Shown piece by piece: positions 7,608 through 29,609 of a stretch of 41,648 bases of DNA; positions within the stretch are counted from its first letter, which is position 1; each line of letters starts with the position of its first letter. Source of the DNA: a virus (taxonomy: Duplodnaviria > Heunggongvirae > Uroviricota > Caudoviricetes); IMG/VR virus record IMGVR_UViG_2541047962_000003; one strand, given 5' to 3'. Both the position numbers and the translations under genes were made by a program. Below the pieces are notes generated by a model. The model worked only from the letters and a program-made list of their open reading frames with translations, made no database searches and was not told the origin of the DNA.

Positions 7608-7767
7608 ACCTGATAACTCTGTTCATGTCACTTGCAATGACTTTAACATCACTTCTTATTGCCCGACAATCAGATCCAGAAGCAGCATATTGCCAGTAAT
7701 CTGTAGTCGGCATAATGTCCATAACACTACCGGCAGCGGCTAAGTAACGATTAACGATTTTCCTCAT
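7528..7767 (-). CDS. Small hypothetical protein (about 80 aa)
   Basis: ATG at 7767 preceded by a strong GGGAGGGG ribosome-binding site. No recognisable domain. Confidence 0.35.
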   Translation of the reverse strand: MRKIVNRYLAAAGSVMDIMPTTDYWQYAASGSDCRAIRSDVKVIASDMNRVIRYEFKTPQAGGRSQKASGKQSVAKSRS

Positions 7768-7932
7768 ATCCCCTCCCATAGTGAACATCAGTGGAGCGCA
7801 GAGTTTACCTTTAAGGTAAAGTATAGACAACTACTGTGTACAGATGGTTCAAAAAATGCGTTAACCAGTATTATTTTGTTAAATTTAGCGCAATTGGCAA
7901 CAGTTCATCCATAATATTATGGACGTCAAAAA

Positions 7933-8277
7933 TCATCGCCCAGCCACTTTTTTACAAGGGAAAGATCCGATGATTTTCGGCGCATCCATGCTGTTCTGCA
8001 GAAGCTGGACATTCAGGAATCGCGTTTCGGTACCAGGGCGACGAATGTATTCAAAGCCGTAGTTGTTACCGTCTTTGGCAGGCATAAGCCCCATGTCTAC
8101 TTTCAAACCATTGGTACCCAGTTCGGTGATTTTTTGAGAGGTAACTCTTTCACCGTTGATAGTCGATAACTCGCCCTGGTTTGCAACCATAGTGTAGCCA
8201 CCGCATTTAACCGTGAAGCCATCCGCCCACGCGCTGCACGCAGAAAAGGCAGCTAACAGAAAAATAATACCCCTCAT
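7933..8277 (-). CDS. Secreted protein or lipoprotein with N-terminal signal peptide (114 aa)
   Basis: N-terminus MRGIIFLLAAFSACSAWADG has a hydrophobic core with both a possible lipobox Cys and an AxA cleavage motif. Confidence 0.55.
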   Translation of the reverse strand: MRGIIFLLAAFSACSAWADGFTVKCGGYTMVANQGELSTINGERVTSQKITELGTNGLKVDMGLMPAKDGNNYGFEYIRRPGTETRFLNVQLLQNSMDAPKIIGSFPCKKVAGR

Positions 8278-23604: not shown

Positions 23605-24129
23605 TTACCGGGACTGTTCTACTTGTCGGACACCAGCCAACTGGTTATTCGCCTTCTCGATGGCTGCCAACAGTGGGTTAATCCACAGAACAGCCTGGCA
23701 ATATGTCAACGTTCTGGTGGTAGTGGCACGATCACCGGCTGAGTCAATGTCCCCGGAATCGGCGTGCAATGCGCTGGCACGTAAACGGTTCGCGTAGTTG
23801 AGCACCCCGACAGCAATATCAACAGGAACAGGGAAATCACAGTTCTTTTCACGGAGCAGAACCTCACGGTATTTGATGACTGTCTTCTCGTGACCGATGT
23901 CGACCAGAGAATTTAATCGGCTTGCGTTTTCTGCTATCTGGTTAAAGCGATTGAAGTTTAATGCCTGATTAGCTATCACTTTCCCTTGATATTCAGCTTC
24001 ACCTTCCGCTTTATCAGCCCGCAACTTTTCTGCCCGATACTTGCTGTGGTAATGGTTTGCAGACCAGACGAGCGCCCCAAAGGCAGAGAAGAAAAATGCC
24101 GCGATGACAATCTTATAAGTCAGCTTCAT
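23605..24129 (-). CDS. Rz-like i-spanin; an embedded Rz1 o-spanin may be present but was not resolved
   Basis: 174 aa with N-terminal transmembrane helix and coiled-coil-like body, overlapping the endolysin stop. Confidence 0.6.
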   Translation of the reverse strand: MKLTYKIVIAAFFFSAFGALVWSANHYHSKYRAEKLRADKAEGEAEYQGKVIANQALNFNRFNQIAENASRLNSLVDIGHEKTVIKYREVLLREKNCDFPVPVDIAVGVLNYANRLRASALHADSGDIDSAGDRATTTRTLTYCQAVLWINPLLAAIEKANNQLAGVRQVEQSR

Positions 24130-24589
24130 TTACCACCCCACCAGCATCTTTAAACCTGGAAATCAGGTCACCGATTTTATGTTCATACTGACCGTAACCT
24201 GCACCAGGTAACGACGCCCAGATATTGCTGCAACGGTCGATTGCCTGACGAATATCGCCACGGTCAATCATCGGTAAAGCGCCACGCTCTTTAATCTGCT
24301 GCAGCGCCACAGCGTCCTGACTTTCTGGCGAAAAATCTTTCAGGCCAAGCTGCTTGCGGTAGGCATCCCACCAGCGTGAAAGAAGTTGATACCGGCCTGC
24401 AGCTGTTGATTTAAGCTTCGGGTTTAGCGTGACAAGTTTGCGAGGGTGATCGGAGTAATCAGTGAACAACTCACCTCCGACGATAACGTCATAACCGTGA
24501 TTACGTGTCGGTTGTCGCCCGTTATCCGTTCCTTCTGACCATGCCACCATATCCAGGAAAGCTTTACGTTGGGAATTTAGTGTCTGCAT
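24113..24589 (-). CDS. R: Endolysin, phage lambda R-type lytic transglycosylase
   Basis: 158 aa. ...NSQRKAFLDMVAWSEGTDNGRQPTRNHGYDVIVGGELFTDYSDHPRKLV... matches lambda R closely as recalled. Confidence 0.9.
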   Translation of the reverse strand: MQTLNSQRKAFLDMVAWSEGTDNGRQPTRNHGYDVIVGGELFTDYSDHPRKLVTLNPKLKSTAAGRYQLLSRWWDAYRKQLGLKDFSPESQDAVALQQIKERGALPMIDRGDIRQAIDRCSNIWASLPGAGYGQYEHKIGDLISRFKDAGGVVNEADL

Positions 24590-24592
24590 GAA

Positions 24593-24934
24593 TTACTCCT
24601 TAGAGCCACCAAACTTGTTACCGATTACTCGCATTGCAGCCCCACGAATAGCATCGACACCGATCAGCCCAACACCACCACCAATGGCAACAGAAAGAGA
24701 TTTAGGCCATCCAACATACTCAAGAGCGGATGCAAAGGTCAGCGTCAGAGCACCACAGAGCAAAATCTCAAGCGTTTTTCGTTTCCAGCCGCCGCCACCG
24801 CCAAAATAGGCAATGCGCAAGCCAGCCATAACAATTGACATAACCACTGCGCCCAACGGCGTATCTCCACGCCACCAACTTTGTAAGAGTTCCAGTAAGT
24901 CAGGCCAGGAATGAGGAGCATTGTGCATTTTCAT
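24593..24934 (-). CDS. Holin with MKM dual-start motif
   Basis: Hydrophobic helices. ATG-AAA-ATG preceded by GGAGGTG. The ORF could extend to 24952. Confidence 0.6.
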   Translation of the reverse strand: MKMHNAPHSWPDLLELLQSWWRGDTPLGAVVMSIVMAGLRIAYFGGGGGWKRKTLEILLCGALTLTFASALEYVGWPKSLSVAIGGGVGLIGVDAIRGAAMRVIGNKFGGSKE

Positions 24935-25035
24935 ACTTCCCACCTCCGCCATTACGGGGTGTTGTTGAAAGGCGGGCCCTGCGTATACGCCCGTAGGATT
25001 GGGTTATGAGCCGTCCTTCGGTGGGCCCTGAATAC

Positions 25036-25058
25036 AAAAAAAGTTCGCCATAGCGAAC
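25036..25058 (-). terminator. Rho-independent terminator (tR'-like) upstream of the lysis genes
   Basis: Minus strand reads GTTCGC-tatg-GCGAAC followed by seven T; perfect hairpin about 80 nt upstream of the holin start. Confidence 0.7.
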
Positions 25059-25288
25059 CTTGTTAAATTTGTTAAAAAAGGAAGTTATTTAACATAATGT
25101 ACGTTATAGGAACCACACGATCACCGCTCGCAATAGATTTGCGATGAAAGGCCTATTTAATCAACTTAAGTGGTCCAGAATGACGAAATTCGAGTGAATA
25201 AAAGGTGCATAAAAAAGGGCAAAAACTGCATAGCGTTTTTTCGCAGCGAAAGCCCTGTTTTATTAACTTTTCCCCAGAATGGGGCAAT

Positions 25289-25312
25289 AAAAAAGGCCCC
25301 CTTGCGGAAGCC
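25289..25312 (-). terminator. Rho-independent terminator after the post-Q gene
   Basis: Minus strand reads GGCTTCC-gcaa-GGGGGCC followed by TTTTTT (tetraloop, with G-U pairs). Confidence 0.55.
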
Positions 25313-25379
25313 TCTTCGTGATGAACTGTTTTCAACGGATATCAGGCTAATCGGCTTTTTGGAATTCCACAACTATTTT

Positions 25380-25721
25380 TTATCTTACCTTGATGCCTGA
25401 TGCCGTCAGATGTTTACGACAGTCCTGAATACCTTCGTTATAACCCGCATCGTAGAAGCTATCCGGCTTTGCCTTCAGCGCAGGAAGCGTAACGCTGGTA
25501 GCTCTTCGTTCGGCCAGAACACCTGCCTGAAAGAGTGTCCACATCAACTGAACTGCTGAATCACAGTAAGTAACATCTTCACTGTACAATTCTCGTTCAA
25601 TCCTGATGCCAAGTTGAGCCTTCATTGATGCGCTAATATTACCTTTGACCTGCAACGACAGGTCTGGGTACCTCTGTTCCATGAAGCTTTCAAATCTGTT
25701 GCGAACGCTGATCAGAGCCAT
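25380..25721 (-). CDS. Hypothetical protein, 113 aa, encoded between Q and the late regulatory region
   Basis: ATG preceded by AAGGGA, 31 bp after the Q stop. No recognised domain. Confidence 0.55.
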   Translation of the reverse strand: MALISVRNRFESFMEQRYPDLSLQVKGNISASMKAQLGIRIERELYSEDVTYCDSAVQLMWTLFQAGVLAERRATSVTLPALKAKPDSFYDAGYNEGIQDCRKHLTASGIKVR

Positions 25722-25752
25722 CTGGTTCCCTTACGTGATTGATTGCTGGATA

Positions 25753-26175
25753 TTATGCCGCCGAGCAGCTCCTACGCAAAGTCCTGATAGCCTGAGGCTT
25801 TGACTGAACCGACTGATCCATTTCGAGCACCACATCCAGCATGGCTAAGCAACCGTCAATAAATCCCTCTGCCGCCTGAAGCCTCTTCAGAACGTGGGTG
25901 TGAGATACGCCGAGCTTCTCACCCATCGCCCGCACGGGCATGGCCTGGACGTAATGCCACTCAAGGAGCGTGCACAGATACGGATCTTTTTTCTTCAGGC
26001 AGCTCATAGCGGAGTTGATGATAAGACCGTCATTGTCACTGCATTTCAGCCTTCCAGACTGCGTCGCGGGTAGCAGATTCTTAAACCCGGCTGCAACAGG
26101 AGGAAAGTAGACGCTACCACCTTCACTCGCTGCCCAGCCACCCCAGCGCTCTAAAACCTGTTGAATATTACGCAT
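25753..26175 (-). CDS. Q: Late-gene antiterminator Q (phage 82/21 type)
   Basis: 140 aa. N-terminal ...VLERWGGWAA... motif characteristic of this Q family as recalled. Located upstream of the lysis cassette. Confidence 0.75.
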   Translation of the reverse strand: MRNIQQVLERWGGWAASEGGSVYFPPVAAGFKNLLPATQSGRLKCSDNDGLIINSAMSCLKKKDPYLCTLLEWHYVQAMPVRAMGEKLGVSHTHVLKRLQAAEGFIDGCLAMLDVVLEMDQSVQSKPQAIRTLRRSCSAA

Positions 26176-26299
26176 AGCTCTGACCTCTACGTTTTGCTAC
26201 GAAAAAATTTTCTGAGAACCACGTCTGTTTATCCGTGGGTGTGGATAACGCAGTTCCGATTCGCTTATTACACGCTGTTATGTGCAAAAAATTCCTTGT

Positions 26300-26490
26300 T
26301 CGGCCTGTACCAACCTGTACCCACCTGTACCAGCTCTTTTCAAACCTTTTCCCCAAGCGACTTATACATATATATGGGGTTCTTAGTAATTAGGTTGGTA
26401 CAGATGGTACAGTTGGTACTGACCTTTAAATTCAATTAGTTAAAATGTACCAACCTCTATTTTGAGGCTGGTACAGGTTGGGACACCGCC
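26300..26490. repeat. Putative replication origin: cluster of 10-bp iterons (TGTACCAACC / GGTTGGTACA) in both orientations flanking an AT-rich core
   Basis: Direct repeats TGTACCAACC, TGTACCCACC, TGTACCAGCT at 26306-26335. AT-rich stretch 26336-26393. Inverted copies GGTTGGTACA, GATGGTACA, GTTGGTAC at 26394-26419. Further copies at 26446-26455 and 26467-26485. Confidence 0.6.
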
Positions 26491-28649
26491 TCAAAAATTC
26501 GAGTCATTTTCCCCCCAATTCGCCTTTGGGCACGCTTATACCCGCAATTTTGCAAAACATTACTAATTCGCATTTCTTCGCGTTTTCCGATGCGGTCAGG
26601 ATTTAGCCCAATCGCATCACGCAAAACATCACTTGCGCGTAAAAATTCGCAATCTCGCGGAAGTTCATTAGTCATCAGGTCTGGCGTGTCGAGCCATTTC
26701 TCTACCGTTTCAAGCCAAGCATCCTTGATGGTGTACTGTTCATGGACACTCGCTGCCAGTTGTTCAGCCTCACGGAACTGGATACCCCCCAGACGCTGAA
26801 ACACCTCACGAGCCTCAGCCCAAAGTAAAAGGAGATCTCTTTTTATCGCTTTCACGTCGACTTTCGACACTTCCACGGGGAGCCAGCGACGGTTACCAGT
26901 CTTGTCCGCAAGGAATTCGTCCTCATTGGTGGTACCAACGAACACCAGGCGACGAGGAAACTGGGTGGCGAACTCCCGGTATTTCGGGATCCAGTTTTCG
27001 TGAGTACGCGTCACAAACGCTTTGATTGACTCCAGCTCTTTGGTATTAAGTCCGCGCAGTTCACCAATCTCTGCCACCAGCCGACCACGCATTTTTCGAG
27101 CGAGATCATCGTCTTTTTCGGCAAAAGAGATTTCAGTAAAAAACGCAGGATCAGGGCTCAGTGCCTCCACTCCGGAAGACTTACCGCAGCCCTGCGGACC
27201 AACGAGGATCGGCACCATATCCGCTTTGATGCCTGGCTCCAGTACTCGCCCCGCCAACGCGGTCCACATGTACATAGACACCGCACGGGTATAAGGCGTG
27301 TCGGCGGTACCGAAGTGCGTATGGTAGAAACATTCGATGCGCGGCACCCCATCCCACTCCAGTCCGTTCAGCCAGGCGATCGCTGAATCGAATGGTTGTT
27401 CATCGGCTGCAAGTAACACCACATCGCGAATAAGTTCACGGCCAACAGGTTTAAATCCCCGCTTTTCCATCGTGATGCGCAGGCGCGCATAATCCGCATC
27501 GGTGAATGCCCGCCATTGTCCGGATCCTGCCGGGGCAAACATGATTTCGTCGCGGAACAGGTCAAAGCGAATATCGATGTCCACAAAATCAGGGCGTACT
27601 ACTGCTTTGGCTGCGTTGCTGATGGTTGCCTCGATACGCCCCCATTTATCACGCTCGAAAGCAGGCAGCGGTAAAGGTTCCGCCACTTCGGTGCTGGTCA
27701 GATCTTCGAAATCGTCGTTGCGGATCCCGATGGCATTAAGGAAATCTCCGTCATCACGATGCGCACAACTGGCATGCAGGCATTTAAAATGCCCCTGCTC
27801 AAAGCCCGCGGTTCCCGCAGGAAAATAAACTGTGCTTGTTGGATCGCCCCCGCTACTGTGGCCGTCTTCAAACGGACAGCGGATATATCGTTCACCATTT
27901 GCACCATCCAGCAGCGTCCAGCCATTGGCATCAAGATATTCAGCTGTATCATCCGTCGCGCCGGGCGTGAATGCTGATCGGTCGCGCATCTTCGTGTTGC
28001 CCGCTTCGGTGGTTACCGACACAGGGAGTTGTTCAGCCAGGCGCTGCCACAGCGTTTCAAGCTGCTCACCAGTAATAGCCGGAGGTTCATCCGGCAAACC
28101 GCCGTCCCATTCAATACGCGCGCCGCTGCTGTGCGTACCGCAGGCAACGAACTGCTGCCCGTTCGCCAGCAACTCGATAATGCCCATATCCCCCGCCAGG
28201 CGATGGATACGCTTACGGAAATCACCATCAACGGCCAGCAGATACAGACACTTATTACTGTTTGCTCGCCAGCGTCGTGGCGGCAACTCACCCAGAAGTT
28301 GCACAAGCGTTTTACGAATATCTGCCTGAATGTCTTCATCTTCGCTATCACAGTCCAGCGCCAGCCAGCCATGGCCTGTACGCACGCAGATGCCATAATC
28401 CGGTTCATTCGACCAGCGGGCAAAATCATGCTCAGTAACAACATGCCCGGTCCATTGAGCAATACCGGTGACCTGGCGGTCCCGGTTATAGCGACTCGGC
28501 GTCTTACCCAACGCTTTCAGTTTACTATCAGGGGATATGGTCGCACCGGGGTTACATACAACTGGCAGAAGATGATCAGTTCTCCCCAATACCAGGTCGA
28601 AATGAAACCACTCATCAGGCGTAGCTCCCCATGGTTTGCTATCGGACAT
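26457..28649 (-). CDS. DNA primase/helicase (D5/P4-alpha-like, with Walker A motif)
   Basis: 730 aa. ...VGPQGCGKSS... P-loop in the C-terminal half. Translationally coupled to the cro-like gene. Confidence 0.8.
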   Translation of the reverse strand: MSDSKPWGATPDEWFHFDLVLGRTDHLLPVVCNPGATISPDSKLKALGKTPSRYNRDRQVTGIAQWTGHVVTEHDFARWSNEPDYGICVRTGHGWLALDCDSEDEDIQADIRKTLVQLLGELPPRRWRANSNKCLYLLAVDGDFRKRIHRLAGDMGIIELLANGQQFVACGTHSSGARIEWDGGLPDEPPAITGEQLETLWQRLAEQLPVSVTTEAGNTKMRDRSAFTPGATDDTAEYLDANGWTLLDGANGERYIRCPFEDGHSSGGDPTSTVYFPAGTAGFEQGHFKCLHASCAHRDDGDFLNAIGIRNDDFEDLTSTEVAEPLPLPAFERDKWGRIEATISNAAKAVVRPDFVDIDIRFDLFRDEIMFAPAGSGQWRAFTDADYARLRITMEKRGFKPVGRELIRDVVLLAADEQPFDSAIAWLNGLEWDGVPRIECFYHTHFGTADTPYTRAVSMYMWTALAGRVLEPGIKADMVPILVGPQGCGKSSGVEALSPDPAFFTEISFAEKDDDLARKMRGRLVAEIGELRGLNTKELESIKAFVTRTHENWIPKYREFATQFPRRLVFVGTTNEDEFLADKTGNRRWLPVEVSKVDVKAIKRDLLLLWAEAREVFQRLGGIQFREAEQLAASVHEQYTIKDAWLETVEKWLDTPDLMTNELPRDCEFLRASDVLRDAIGLNPDRIGKREEMRISNVLQNCGYKRAQRRIGGKMTRIFEAVSQPVPASK

Positions 28650-28652
28650 GGG

Positions 28653-28865
28653 TTAAGCCTTTTTATCGTTTTGTGAGCCATACAACAGCCAATTAGGGTC
28701 GCAATCCAATGCTATAGACATTTCAAGAAGATAACGTGGCCGAGCAATAACACCACTTTCAATTCTGTTTATTGCCTGCTGGCTCACTCCTGTGAGCTCA
28801 GCCAACGTAACTTGCGTCATTTTGAGTTCTTTACGTCGTTCTTTTACTCGGGTCGCTAAGGTCAT
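28653..28865 (-). CDS. cro: Cro-like helix-turn-helix regulator
   Basis: About 70 aa. ...QVTLAELTGVSQQAINRIE... helix-turn-helix. ATG at 28865 preceded by GAGGTG. Divergent from the CI gene. Confidence 0.7.
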   Translation of the reverse strand: MTLATRVKERRKELKMTQVTLAELTGVSQQAINRIESGVIARPRYLLEMSIALDCDPNWLLYGSQNDKKA

Positions 28866-28883
28866 TGCTTTCACCTCATACAA

Positions 28884-28985
28884 TTTTAGTGGTATTTAGC
28901 AACAACAAACGAGGTTTGTCAAATACAACAAAAATTGTTTTTAATGTGGAGATACACATTAATACAACCCAGAAGGACTAATCCC
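28884..28985. promoter_or_regulatory. Divergent immunity promoter/operator region with three palindromes
   Basis: ACAAAC-gag-GTTTGT (about 28904-28919), AACAA-aaa-TTGTT, and TTAATGTG-gagata-CACATTAA (about 28940-28961), between cro and cI. Confidence 0.55.
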
Positions 28986-29609
28986 ATGTCTCTCGCAGCC
29001 CGTTTTAAAGCACGTCGTTTGGAATTAGGAATGACTCAAGTGGAAGTAGCGAATTCTGCAGGGGTTAGCCAACAATCCATAGAATCCATCGAAAGTGGAC
29101 GAACCAGAAAGCCACGCAATCTTCTGGATCTGGCTAAGGCCTTGAAATGTAGCCCAGACTGGCTACTGAACGGTAAAAATATTATGCCTCTCGCGGAGAT
29201 AAGTACCAGACGCATACCTATATTAAGTTACGTTCAGGCAGGAGAGCTTACAGAAGCAAGAGACATAACAGATCTGACAGGGGAATTTGAATATATTTTG
29301 GCAGACTCTGACATTCCAGAAACATGCTTCGCATTACGTATCGATGGCGACAGCATGCAACCAGAGTTTAAAGAAGGAGACATTGTTATCATCGATCCTG
29401 ATCTATGTCCTGCACCAGGGGAGTTTGTTGTCGCCAAAAACGACGGTCACGAAGCTACATTTAAAAAATACCGTCCATTAGGAATCGGCATCGACGACTT
29501 TGAATTAATCCCCCTAAATCCTGATTACCCTATTTTTCGTAGTGCAGATATGAACTTACAGATCATAGGTGTAATGATCGAACACCGTATTTACCGCCGT
29601 AAACGTTAG
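28986..29609 (+). CDS. cI: CI-type repressor (N-terminal helix-turn-helix plus C-terminal LexA/S24-like autocleavage domain)
   Basis: ...QVEVANSAGVSQQSIESIE... helix-turn-helix and ...GDSMQPEF..GDIVIIDP...KK... in the C-terminal domain. ATG at 28986 preceded by GAAGGA. Confidence 0.85.
   Translation: MSLAARFKARRLELGMTQVEVANSAGVSQQSIESIESGRTRKPRNLLDLAKALKCSPDWLLNGKNIMPLAEISTRRIPILSYVQAGELTEARDITDLTGEFEYILADSDIPETCFALRIDGDSMQPEFKEGDIVIIDPDLCPAPGEFVVAKNDGHEATFKKYRPLGIGIDDFELIPLNPDYPIFRSADMNLQIIGVMIEHRIYRRKR

Follow-up and report, generated by a model that had tools for sequence, protein, structure and literature searches.

ORF113, a PF26207-family gene between the antiterminator gene Q and the predicted late promoter of a prophage right arm

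The Q–ORF113 locus and the coding status of ORF113

The window analyzed here is the whole 41,648-nucleotide stretch of the viral record IMGVR_UViG_2541047962_000003 (Caudoviricetes), and the gene in question is ORF113, an open reading frame (ORF) of 113 amino acids at 25380–25721 on the minus strand, the strand of the prophage right arm in the window. A first-pass annotation, made from the letters alone, had placed an additional gene after Q, ahead of the late regulatory region, and these coordinates proved exact. Upstream lies the gene for the Q antiterminator (25753–26175, minus; 140 amino acids), which is of the Q21/Q933W type (PF06530, expectation value (E) 5e-42; PHROG 79), shares 42–46% identity with Q of Stx-converting phages and gives a weak match to the solved Q21 structure 6p18/6jnx (E 0.13). 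The Q stop codon, TAA at 25755–25753, is followed by a 31-nt spacer (25722–25752, minus) and then by the ATG of ORF113 (25721–25719). A Shine-Dalgarno sequence, AAGGGA (25732–25727), stands 5 nt ahead of this ATG. Beyond ORF113, a 427-nt leader runs to the holin gene (24593–24952, minus; PF05106, E 1e-27), the first of the lysis genes. The good ribosome-binding site, the start 31 nt past the Q stop and the terminator after ORF113, followed by a terminator-rich leader (T1, T2 and T3 below, all before the holin), had likewise been noted in the first-pass annotation and hold up.

Comparison with two diverged relatives, L017 and L019, in which the homologs are 81–85% identical, gives a ratio of nonsynonymous to synonymous substitution rates (dN/dS) of 0.06–0.07 at dS 1.3–1.6. 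The ratio for Q in the same pairs is 0.04–0.11, a similar range, and ORF113 is therefore more than a chance ORF. Both relatives retain the start codon, 31 nt past the Q stop, together with its Shine-Dalgarno sequence, and RefSeq annotates the identical coding sequence as WP_001174015.1. Across 56 homologs the pattern of conserved motifs is maintained, and insertions and deletions are limited to one loop. Full-length relatives at 45–49% identity are found in Rahnella, Yersinia and other enterobacterial contigs, and relatives at 33–40% identity in Providencia, Proteus, Xenorhabdus and a phage deposited as Vibrio phage vB_PvuS_Pm34. Judged by these comparisons, ORF113 is a genuine gene.

Intact and damaged copies coexist in Escherichia coli. 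Of 5426 complete E. coli genomes, the prophage region is matched by 144, 62 of which carry ORF113 with coverage of at least 80% and, in nearly all cases, identity of at least 99%. The other copies show a deletion scar, a 1-nt frameshift, an internal deletion or an adjacent IS1, and frameshifted products of 57–58 amino acids occur in about 90 contigs. In four sequenced E. coli phages (vB_EcoM-611R5 and its relatives), the flanks are 99% and 88% identical to the window and positions 25437–25717 are missing. The 281-bp deletion in vB_EcoM-611R5 has left a scar that still includes the Shine-Dalgarno sequence, the ATG and 57 nt from the 3' end of ORF113. We considered the converse, an insertion in the window, and rejected it on account of these remnants and of the full-length gene in other genera. 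Separately, an IS1A insertion lies within the Q/ORF113 region of an E. coli O121 genome (NZ_CP119441.1, 3589965–3591841; H16).

The damaged copies could be taken to mean that ORF113 is decaying, or is untranslated and without present function in this phage. Frameshifted and deleted forms are indeed common in E. coli prophages (L161, L162 and L170 share the state of a 1-nt deletion), and IS1 adjoins the gene in one genome. Nevertheless, purifying selection is strong where dS exceeds 1, some 60 genomes carry an intact frame with identity of 99% or more, the translation start signals are conserved, and full-length homologs exist in at least five genera. We therefore consider decay very improbable.

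The predicted late promoter, its terminators and the cargo slot

Directly behind ORF113 lies a conserved element that we infer to be the late promoter pR' (25344–25380, minus). It consists of an A-tract, a −35 hexamer TTGTGG (25372–25367), a 17-nt spacer and a −10 hexamer TAGCCT (25349–25344), and the motif begins 7 nt past the ORF113 stop codon. In an alignment of the window with L017, L019 and L001, the 60 nt directly 3' of the ORF113 stop are 93–100% identical, compared with 60–80% for the flanking coding and non-coding sequence. The same element, comprising the A-tract, TTGTGGAATTCCAAA and TAnnCT, directly follows the ORF113 homolog in the distant loci L002, L003, L005 and L007. The −10 hexamer, 17 nt after TTGTGG, has the form TAnnCT: TAGCCT in the window and TAATCT or TATTCT in the others, with TAATGT in two loci. 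A hairpin with a T-run is located about 55–75 nt beyond the motif in most lineages. The palindrome GGAATTCC within pR' (25368–25361, minus) is a candidate Q-binding element and no more than a candidate, as no confident assignment of such an element could be made.

A scan of viral contigs with the 15-mer TTGTGGAATTCCAAA, which occurs once in the window, returned 120 loci, mostly chance matches. A PF06530-like Q gene adjoins the motif in 25 of them. In 13 of these 25 loci, Q and the motif have no gene between them, and the start of the motif falls anywhere from 26 nt ahead of the Q stop to 18 nt past it; in the other 12, an ORF113 homolog intervenes and the motif starts 2–7 nt past its stop codon. 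A comparable arrangement is seen in Stx2 phage II, which has a Q of 42% identity. Its −35/−10 spacing immediately behind Q is the same, and a box ATAAGAGTGGTTAC...GCCACG and a terminator follow Q, as they do in sister lineages. The box TAAGAGTGGTTAC is likewise common to those sister lineages and the region behind Q in Stx2 phage II.

The canonical cassette consists of the Q gene, pR', a sigma-dependent pause element and a terminator, and Q21 and Q933W are assigned to PF06530 (Yin, Kaelber and Ebright, bioRxiv 10.1101/651190). The window resembles this textbook layout, known from phage 21 and 933W-type phages, in having a PF06530 Q, a promoter coupled to the Q module, a short leader to an intrinsic terminator, and the lysis genes downstream. 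Because of the conserved block, the recurrence of the motif at the same place in distant phages, the likeness to Stx2 phage II and this textbook layout, we assign TTGTGG-17 nt-TAGCCT as the predicted pR' and the first downstream terminator, T1, as the predicted tR'. The difference from the textbook is the 342-nt protein-coding gene that stands between Q and pR' in the window, whereas in the textbook cassette and in the 13 loci without a gene, pR' overlaps the Q stop or begins no more than about 20 nt from it.

T1 (25284–25317, minus) is an intrinsic terminator with a 12-bp stem (25317–25290), a GCAA loop and a U-tract. Its folding energy is −17.1 kcal/mol (z −3.05), and it is located 62 nt past the ORF113 stop and about 50 nt 3' of the predicted pR' start site; the 62 nt in between contain the conserved late promoter. 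Compensatory changes among the window, L017 and L019 keep the stem paired. Two further hairpins precede the holin start at 24952. T2 (25210–25262, minus; −16.7 kcal/mol) has a U-tract and lies in a conserved leader block, 25283–25224, with 83–93% identity to L017 and L019. T3 (25035–25061, minus; −10.4 kcal/mol, z −4.4), which was found by the terminator scan, is an intrinsic terminator in the late leader, with its hairpin at 25061–25040 and a compensatory change in L019.

The leader block as a whole (25194–25283, minus), 3' of tR', is 80–93% conserved relative to L017 and L019 and holds a small hairpin, CCCCATTCTGGGG, in addition to T2. It may act as a further terminator or fold into a structured RNA. 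A search of Rfam over 24800–26600 gave nothing above noise, the best match being a terminator hairpin against ctRNA_p42d at 26 bits (gathering score 50). On the opposite strand of the late leader, a promoter-like site, TTGTTA-18 nt-CATAAT (25069–25098, plus), is aimed at ORF113 and Q, and both of its hexamers are invariant in L017, L019 and L001. By analogy with lambda paQ, this site might drive an antisense RNA; alternatively, its conservation might serve the minus strand.

The position of ORF113 upstream of pR' places it in the Q (delayed-early) transcription unit, and that it is the last cistron of this operon is well supported by comparison of loci. In homologous loci with the same layout, the gap between Q and ORF113 is 15–31 nt and contains no terminator, and in L003 the Q stop and the start of the ORF113 homolog overlap as TAATG. 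In the window, the Q-to-ORF113 spacer likewise holds no terminator, and no promoter-like site reaches the scan threshold on its minus strand. One candidate, TTGCGT-16 nt-CATAAT across the Q stop, was dropped: its CATAA comes from the conserved Ala-stop of Q, and the 15–19-nt gap in sister loci is too short for a leader.

This location bears on the suggestion of the first-pass annotation that ORF113 occupies the classic cargo slot between Q and the lysis gene S. Shiga toxin genes sit downstream of pR'/tR'. Recognizable cargo in relatives is likewise found downstream of tR', ahead of the holin, and the cargo slot is therefore placed after pR'/tR'. As far as these comparisons go, ORF113 is outside the classical Q-to-S slot, which starts 3' of ORF113 and of pR'/tR'. 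The interval must thus be reread: the true cargo slot starts after tR', not after the Q stop codon, and ORF113 belongs upstream of pR', inside the Q operon. The genes seen after pR'/tR' in relatives include an alpha/beta-hydrolase or lipase-like gene accompanied by DUF6037 and DUF1883 (Yersinia ruckeri prophage L005, 5673–7954), N6/N4 methyltransferases in Rahnella (L002, 7343–8398) and Xenorhabdus (L012, 4746–5795), and an MptE-like gene with a methyltransferase in Escherichia sp. E1130 (L017, 3669–5675).

ORF113 could still be a classical moron or lysogenic-conversion gene, recently acquired and expressed from the prophage for the benefit of the host. It does share with lambdoid morons and cargo genes such as stx a place between Q and the holin and a patchy presence, even among otherwise near-identical prophages. 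In addition, the Providencia-type homolog has the moron-like layout, with terminators on both sides and a strong promoter-like site, TTGATT-17-TATTAT, upstream. In the window, however, the gene lies upstream of the predicted pR'/tR' in a repressor-controlled early operon. It has no promoter of its own at the scan threshold, and its sole 3' terminator, tR', is common to pR'. Its composition is ordinary, with a GC content of 0.471, and 0.482 at third codon positions, compared with 0.496 for the window and 0.43–0.54 for the neighboring genes. Its divergence in step with Q, described below, points to an old residence; the patchiness is at least partly due to loss, as the deletion scar and the frameshifts indicate; and the true cargo of relatives is downstream of tR'. 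Consequently, recent cargo is an improbable explanation.

In L180, another allele of this prophage, the Q and promoter module is a different one and ORF113 is missing. L180 rejoins the leader of the window just past T1, and the leader block with T2 is present in it despite the different Q module. It therefore appears, from this comparison, that Q, ORF113 (if present), pR' and T1 are swapped as one module.

Family, linkage to Q and possible function

ORF113 matches PHROG 343, a family of unknown function, at E 2.8e-18 over residues 5–112, as do 55 of the 56 aligned relatives. The 98%-identical homologs P0001 and P0002 carry precomputed PF26207.1 (Phage_phiTE_015) assignments, and RefSeq calls some identical copies "phiTE_015 family protein". 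The copy of Pfam-A searched here, which does not include PF26207, gave no match for ORF113 or for any of the 56 relatives. A profile alignment with hhalign of the subfamily alignment (A2) against phiTE_015 (L016:9363-9647) gave a probability of 86% and E 5.2e-6 over 81 columns, with the order of motifs kept, which lends moderate support to homology. The shared order comprises an N-terminal helix with F-E, Y...W, a (V/I)xLP strand, Y/F-N-E-x-I-x-D-C and a C-terminal G-(I/V)-K-V, and the two are of the same size class. They differ in that the enterobacterial subfamily, including ORF113, has a longer, variable and disordered insert at residues 29–46. phiTE_015 itself is a hypothetical protein of the virulent Pectobacterium phage phiTE, with a GenBank note of similarity to Orf41 of Pseudomonas phage D3.

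An exhaustive HMMER search of 1.84 billion representatives yielded just 16 proteins at E ≤ 1e-3, two of which (P0024 and P0027) are repetitive junk; the family is therefore small. A scan of genome contigs with alignment A1 confirmed no relatives. ORF113 has no match in NCBIfam or PADLOC, and a sequence search of the PDB with the family profile gave a chance match only (E 0.17). No sequence or fold match to a characterized anti-defense family was obtained in the libraries searched, which included no dedicated anti-defense library. In the literature, we found no paper that mentions phiTE_015 or PF26207; phrog_343 turns up only in a phage genome listing, and gene 015 receives no discussion in the paper on the phiTE genome.

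In the 56 sequences, F10 and P80 are invariant, E11, Y52, W61 and L79 are nearly so, and the conserved positions include no catalytic-type pattern of His, Asp, Ser or Cys. An AlphaFold2 model built on this alignment (predicted local distance difference test score (pLDDT) 78; predicted template-modeling score (pTM) 0.63) has three long helices and short strands, with the disordered insert mentioned above. Reading the sequence by eye, without a predictor, revealed no evident signal peptide. From the model, the product is probably a small soluble alpha/beta protein. A Foldseek search of the PDB with the better model gave a best E of 0.47, that is, no solved structure alike, and a fold search of BFVD returned solely uncharacterized phage proteins. 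One BFVD match, an Ead/Ea22-like protein of Klebsiella phage IME346, was dropped since the resemblance is not significant (Foldseek E 0.13, template-modeling score about 0.3). Ead/Ea22-like proteins are small, non-essential phage proteins of early regions, as ORF113 appears to be; beyond the weak resemblance of the model, they show no sequence-level match to ORF113, and we do not claim membership.

Thus, the protein that the first-pass annotation did not recognize is recognizable at the family level (PF26207/PHROG 343, the former through its homologs). The homology searches it had proposed led to this family, and neither these nor the structure searches gave a homolog of known function or a similar solved structure. 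No member of the family has a known function, so membership gives no clue to mechanism. The family is catalogued and uncharacterized; it is the placement of ORF113 inside the Q/pR' module that departs from the textbook cassette, and we found no paper describing a gene of this type there.

One database label would give ORF113 a specific role, that of a virion head closure or connector protein. The label comes from PHROG 15831, which ORF113 matches at E 1.7e-19, as do 20 of the 56 family members. The match covers only residues 60–112, against positions 9–60 of a 112-position profile, whereas the full-length family is PHROG 343. Moreover, the gene lies in a regulatory or early region in every context examined and never in a structural module, and the fold searches revealed no structural likeness to connector proteins. 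We regard the label as most likely an annotation artefact, and a role in the virion as the least probable of the explanations discussed here, close to negligible.

The linkage to Q was quantified in 37 viral contigs that encode a relative of the enterobacterial subfamily. A Q gene is directly upstream in 36 of them, and in all nine independently fetched contexts of the subfamily. The 36 Q genes comprise 26 PF06530-like, three lambda-type (PF03589) and seven DUF1133-type genes. The relatives may precede or follow pR'/tR' but always stay within some 200 nt of Q. In the type I layout, that of the window, the order is Q, the ORF, pR' and tR'. In the type II layout, found with lambda-type Q, DUF1133-type Q and one 933W-like PF06530 Q, the Q gene is followed by a gap of 94–195 nt with a promoter-like site. 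A hairpin with a T-run lies near the ORF start in five of the six loci examined, and a second terminator follows the ORF, so that the PF26207 gene is the first gene behind tR'. Two loci with lambda-type or DUF1133-type Q, L013 (3470–3588 and 3916–3960) and L173 (2874–3000), illustrate a PF26207 gene bracketed by two intrinsic terminators.

In type I loci of Escherichia-, Rahnella- and Yersinia-type phages, the divergences of Q and ORF113 track each other (r = 0.97), a correlation driven by two clusters. These sequence distances therefore indicate long co-inheritance of the two genes. Conversely, distant PF26207 members (in L008, L009, L011 and phiTE) stand in groups of small early genes 3' of primase genes, with no detectable Q nearby, while the enterobacterial subfamily is fixed beside Q. 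The first-pass annotation had set its cargo proposal against the alternative of a conserved partner of Q, and the linkage comes close to that alternative: in the enterobacterial subfamily the gene is practically always adjacent to Q and diverges with it. It is, however, neither confined to one Q family nor present wherever that Q occurs. An obligate partnership is not shown, because three Pfam-distinct Q groups are involved and the gene is optional.

A looser functional tie to Q may be envisaged, in which ORF113 helps to regulate the early-to-late switch as an accessory factor: it would bind Q, RNA polymerase/sigma or NusA and tune the loading of Q at pR' or the timing of late expression. The adjacency in 36 of 37 relatives, the co-inheritance, the overlap of the translational-coupling type in L003, and the presence of the gene on both sides of pR'/tR' yet within about 200 nt of Q are all in keeping with such a role. 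A database protein, P0019, even joins a C-terminal segment of Q to ORF113-like sequence, but it resembles a decayed gene call rather than a true fusion. The Q-lambda, Q21 and Q82 families have no sequence similarity to one another (Yin et al., bioRxiv 10.1101/651190), and a single partner for the three Q groups seen here (PF06530-like, PF03589 and DUF1133-type) is unlikely. Furthermore, the gene is missing from roughly half of the phages that share this Q type and pR' motif, it is deleted in isolated phages, and its distant family members are in phages with no detectable Q nearby. We consider this regulatory role rather unlikely, although less so than recent cargo.

The first-pass annotation also called ORF113 a candidate accessory gene. 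In the sense of being dispensable, this stands: the 281-bp scar, the allele L180 and the absence of ORF113 from 13 of the 25 Q loci that share this pR' motif allow us to infer strongly that the gene is dispensable and that basic viability of the phage does not require it. The distribution over a rough neighbor-joining tree of Q proteins, which serves as a sketch only, suggests more than one loss or gain. In the sense of a recent add-on, it does not stand, given the co-divergence with Q, the ordinary GC content and the consistent place beside Q.

We propose the following scheme. ORF113 would be co-transcribed with Q from an early promoter and translated from its own Shine-Dalgarno sequence, 31 nt past the Q stop. 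tR' would be the terminator that Q-modified RNA polymerase reads through, and it would end the early transcript as well. The cassette in the window would then be Q, ORF113, pR' and tR' instead of Q, pR', terminator and late genes. The protein would bind another protein in the lytic cycle, at about the time when the late genes switch on. Action through binding of a partner is the most likely mode. As for the target, we tentatively favor a host component, in counter-defense or host takeover, over Q, although our confidence in this part is well below even. The preference arises because distant members are in early regions without detectable Q and close relatives manage without the gene. A host-directed role also fits the optional presence of the gene, the occurrence of the family in virulent and temperate phages without Q nearby, and its association with three Pfam-distinct Q groups. 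Taken as a whole, the best explanation, namely a genuine, dispensable PF26207 gene that is the last cistron of the Q operon and encodes a binding protein, more likely directed at the host than at Q, has in our judgment about an even chance of being correct.

Several points weigh against this explanation. The predicted pR' falls under the 9-of-12 threshold of a simple promoter scan, and no stretch of the window could be identified as a sigma-dependent pause element. Sequence and comparison are the sole grounds for co-transcription with Q and for the pR' start site. No homolog of known function was found by sequence or fold in Pfam, NCBIfam, PADLOC, the PDB or BFVD. The tight and repeated linkage to Q favors a late-switch role over a generic host-directed one. 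Finally, the type II gene would be Q-dependent and not co-expressed with Q, so that the argument from timing is approximate. A broader idea is that the PF26207 subfamily may be a hitherto unrecognized accessory component of the lambdoid late-gene switch, acting on the shared target of the Q proteins (the paused complex of RNA polymerase, sigma70 and NusA) or shielding the burst of late expression from defenses that sense late proteins. We regard it as speculative, and as somewhat less probable than the regulatory role discussed above.

Besides being a regulatory module of textbook standing, the Q/pR' cassette is where related phages control the release of Shiga toxin. A conserved protein-coding gene inside this module, either between Q and pR' or between tR' and a second terminator, is present in a sizeable group of enterobacterial phages. 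ORF113 is thus a testable candidate for an extra layer of the early-to-late switch or for a well-timed counter-defense factor, and natural knock-outs already exist (the phages with the 281-bp deletion), as do identical copies of the gene in E. coli strains that have been sequenced and can be obtained. E. coli FDAARGOS_144, O103:H2 12009 and O55:H7 CB9615 carry it at 99–100% identity over the compared region. Should ORF113 prove to be just another early gene that phages can spare, its role unknown, the finding would be ordinary.

Other features of the right arm

The early side of the arm includes a CI-like repressor gene (28935–29609, plus), a Cro-like gene (28653–28883) and a gene for a primase/helicase with a VapE domain (26457–28649). 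Between the primase/helicase and Q, at 26302–26486, there are at least nine copies of an iteron, approximately GGTTGGTACAG, in both orientations and with 9–10-bp spacing. The blocks at 26302–26335, 26392–26424 and 26446–26486 flank an AT-rich segment (26336–26391), and the region probably serves as the origin of phage replication. Two of the iteron repeats form a terminator-like hairpin at 26475–26446 (minus).

On the late side, the holin gene is followed by the endolysin gene (24113–24589, minus) and Rz (23605–24129, minus); the lysis genes match PHROGs 126, 90 and 214, and genes for TerS and TerL lie 3' of them in the same arm. The holin frame opens with MAEVGSMKMHNAP, and the RefSeq start is the internal MKM (113 amino acids). 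This double start would be a lambda S-like dual-start (antiholin/holin) motif. A 53-amino-acid ORF with a lipoprotein-type signal, LLSGC, is embedded in Rz in the +1 frame (23706–23867, minus) and is the expected Rz1 o-spanin. In L003, a 90-amino-acid gene 3' of the lysis cassette (7666–7938), unrelated to ORF113, gives a weak Pfam match to the Acb2/Tad1 hairpin (anti-CBASS/anti-Thoeris).

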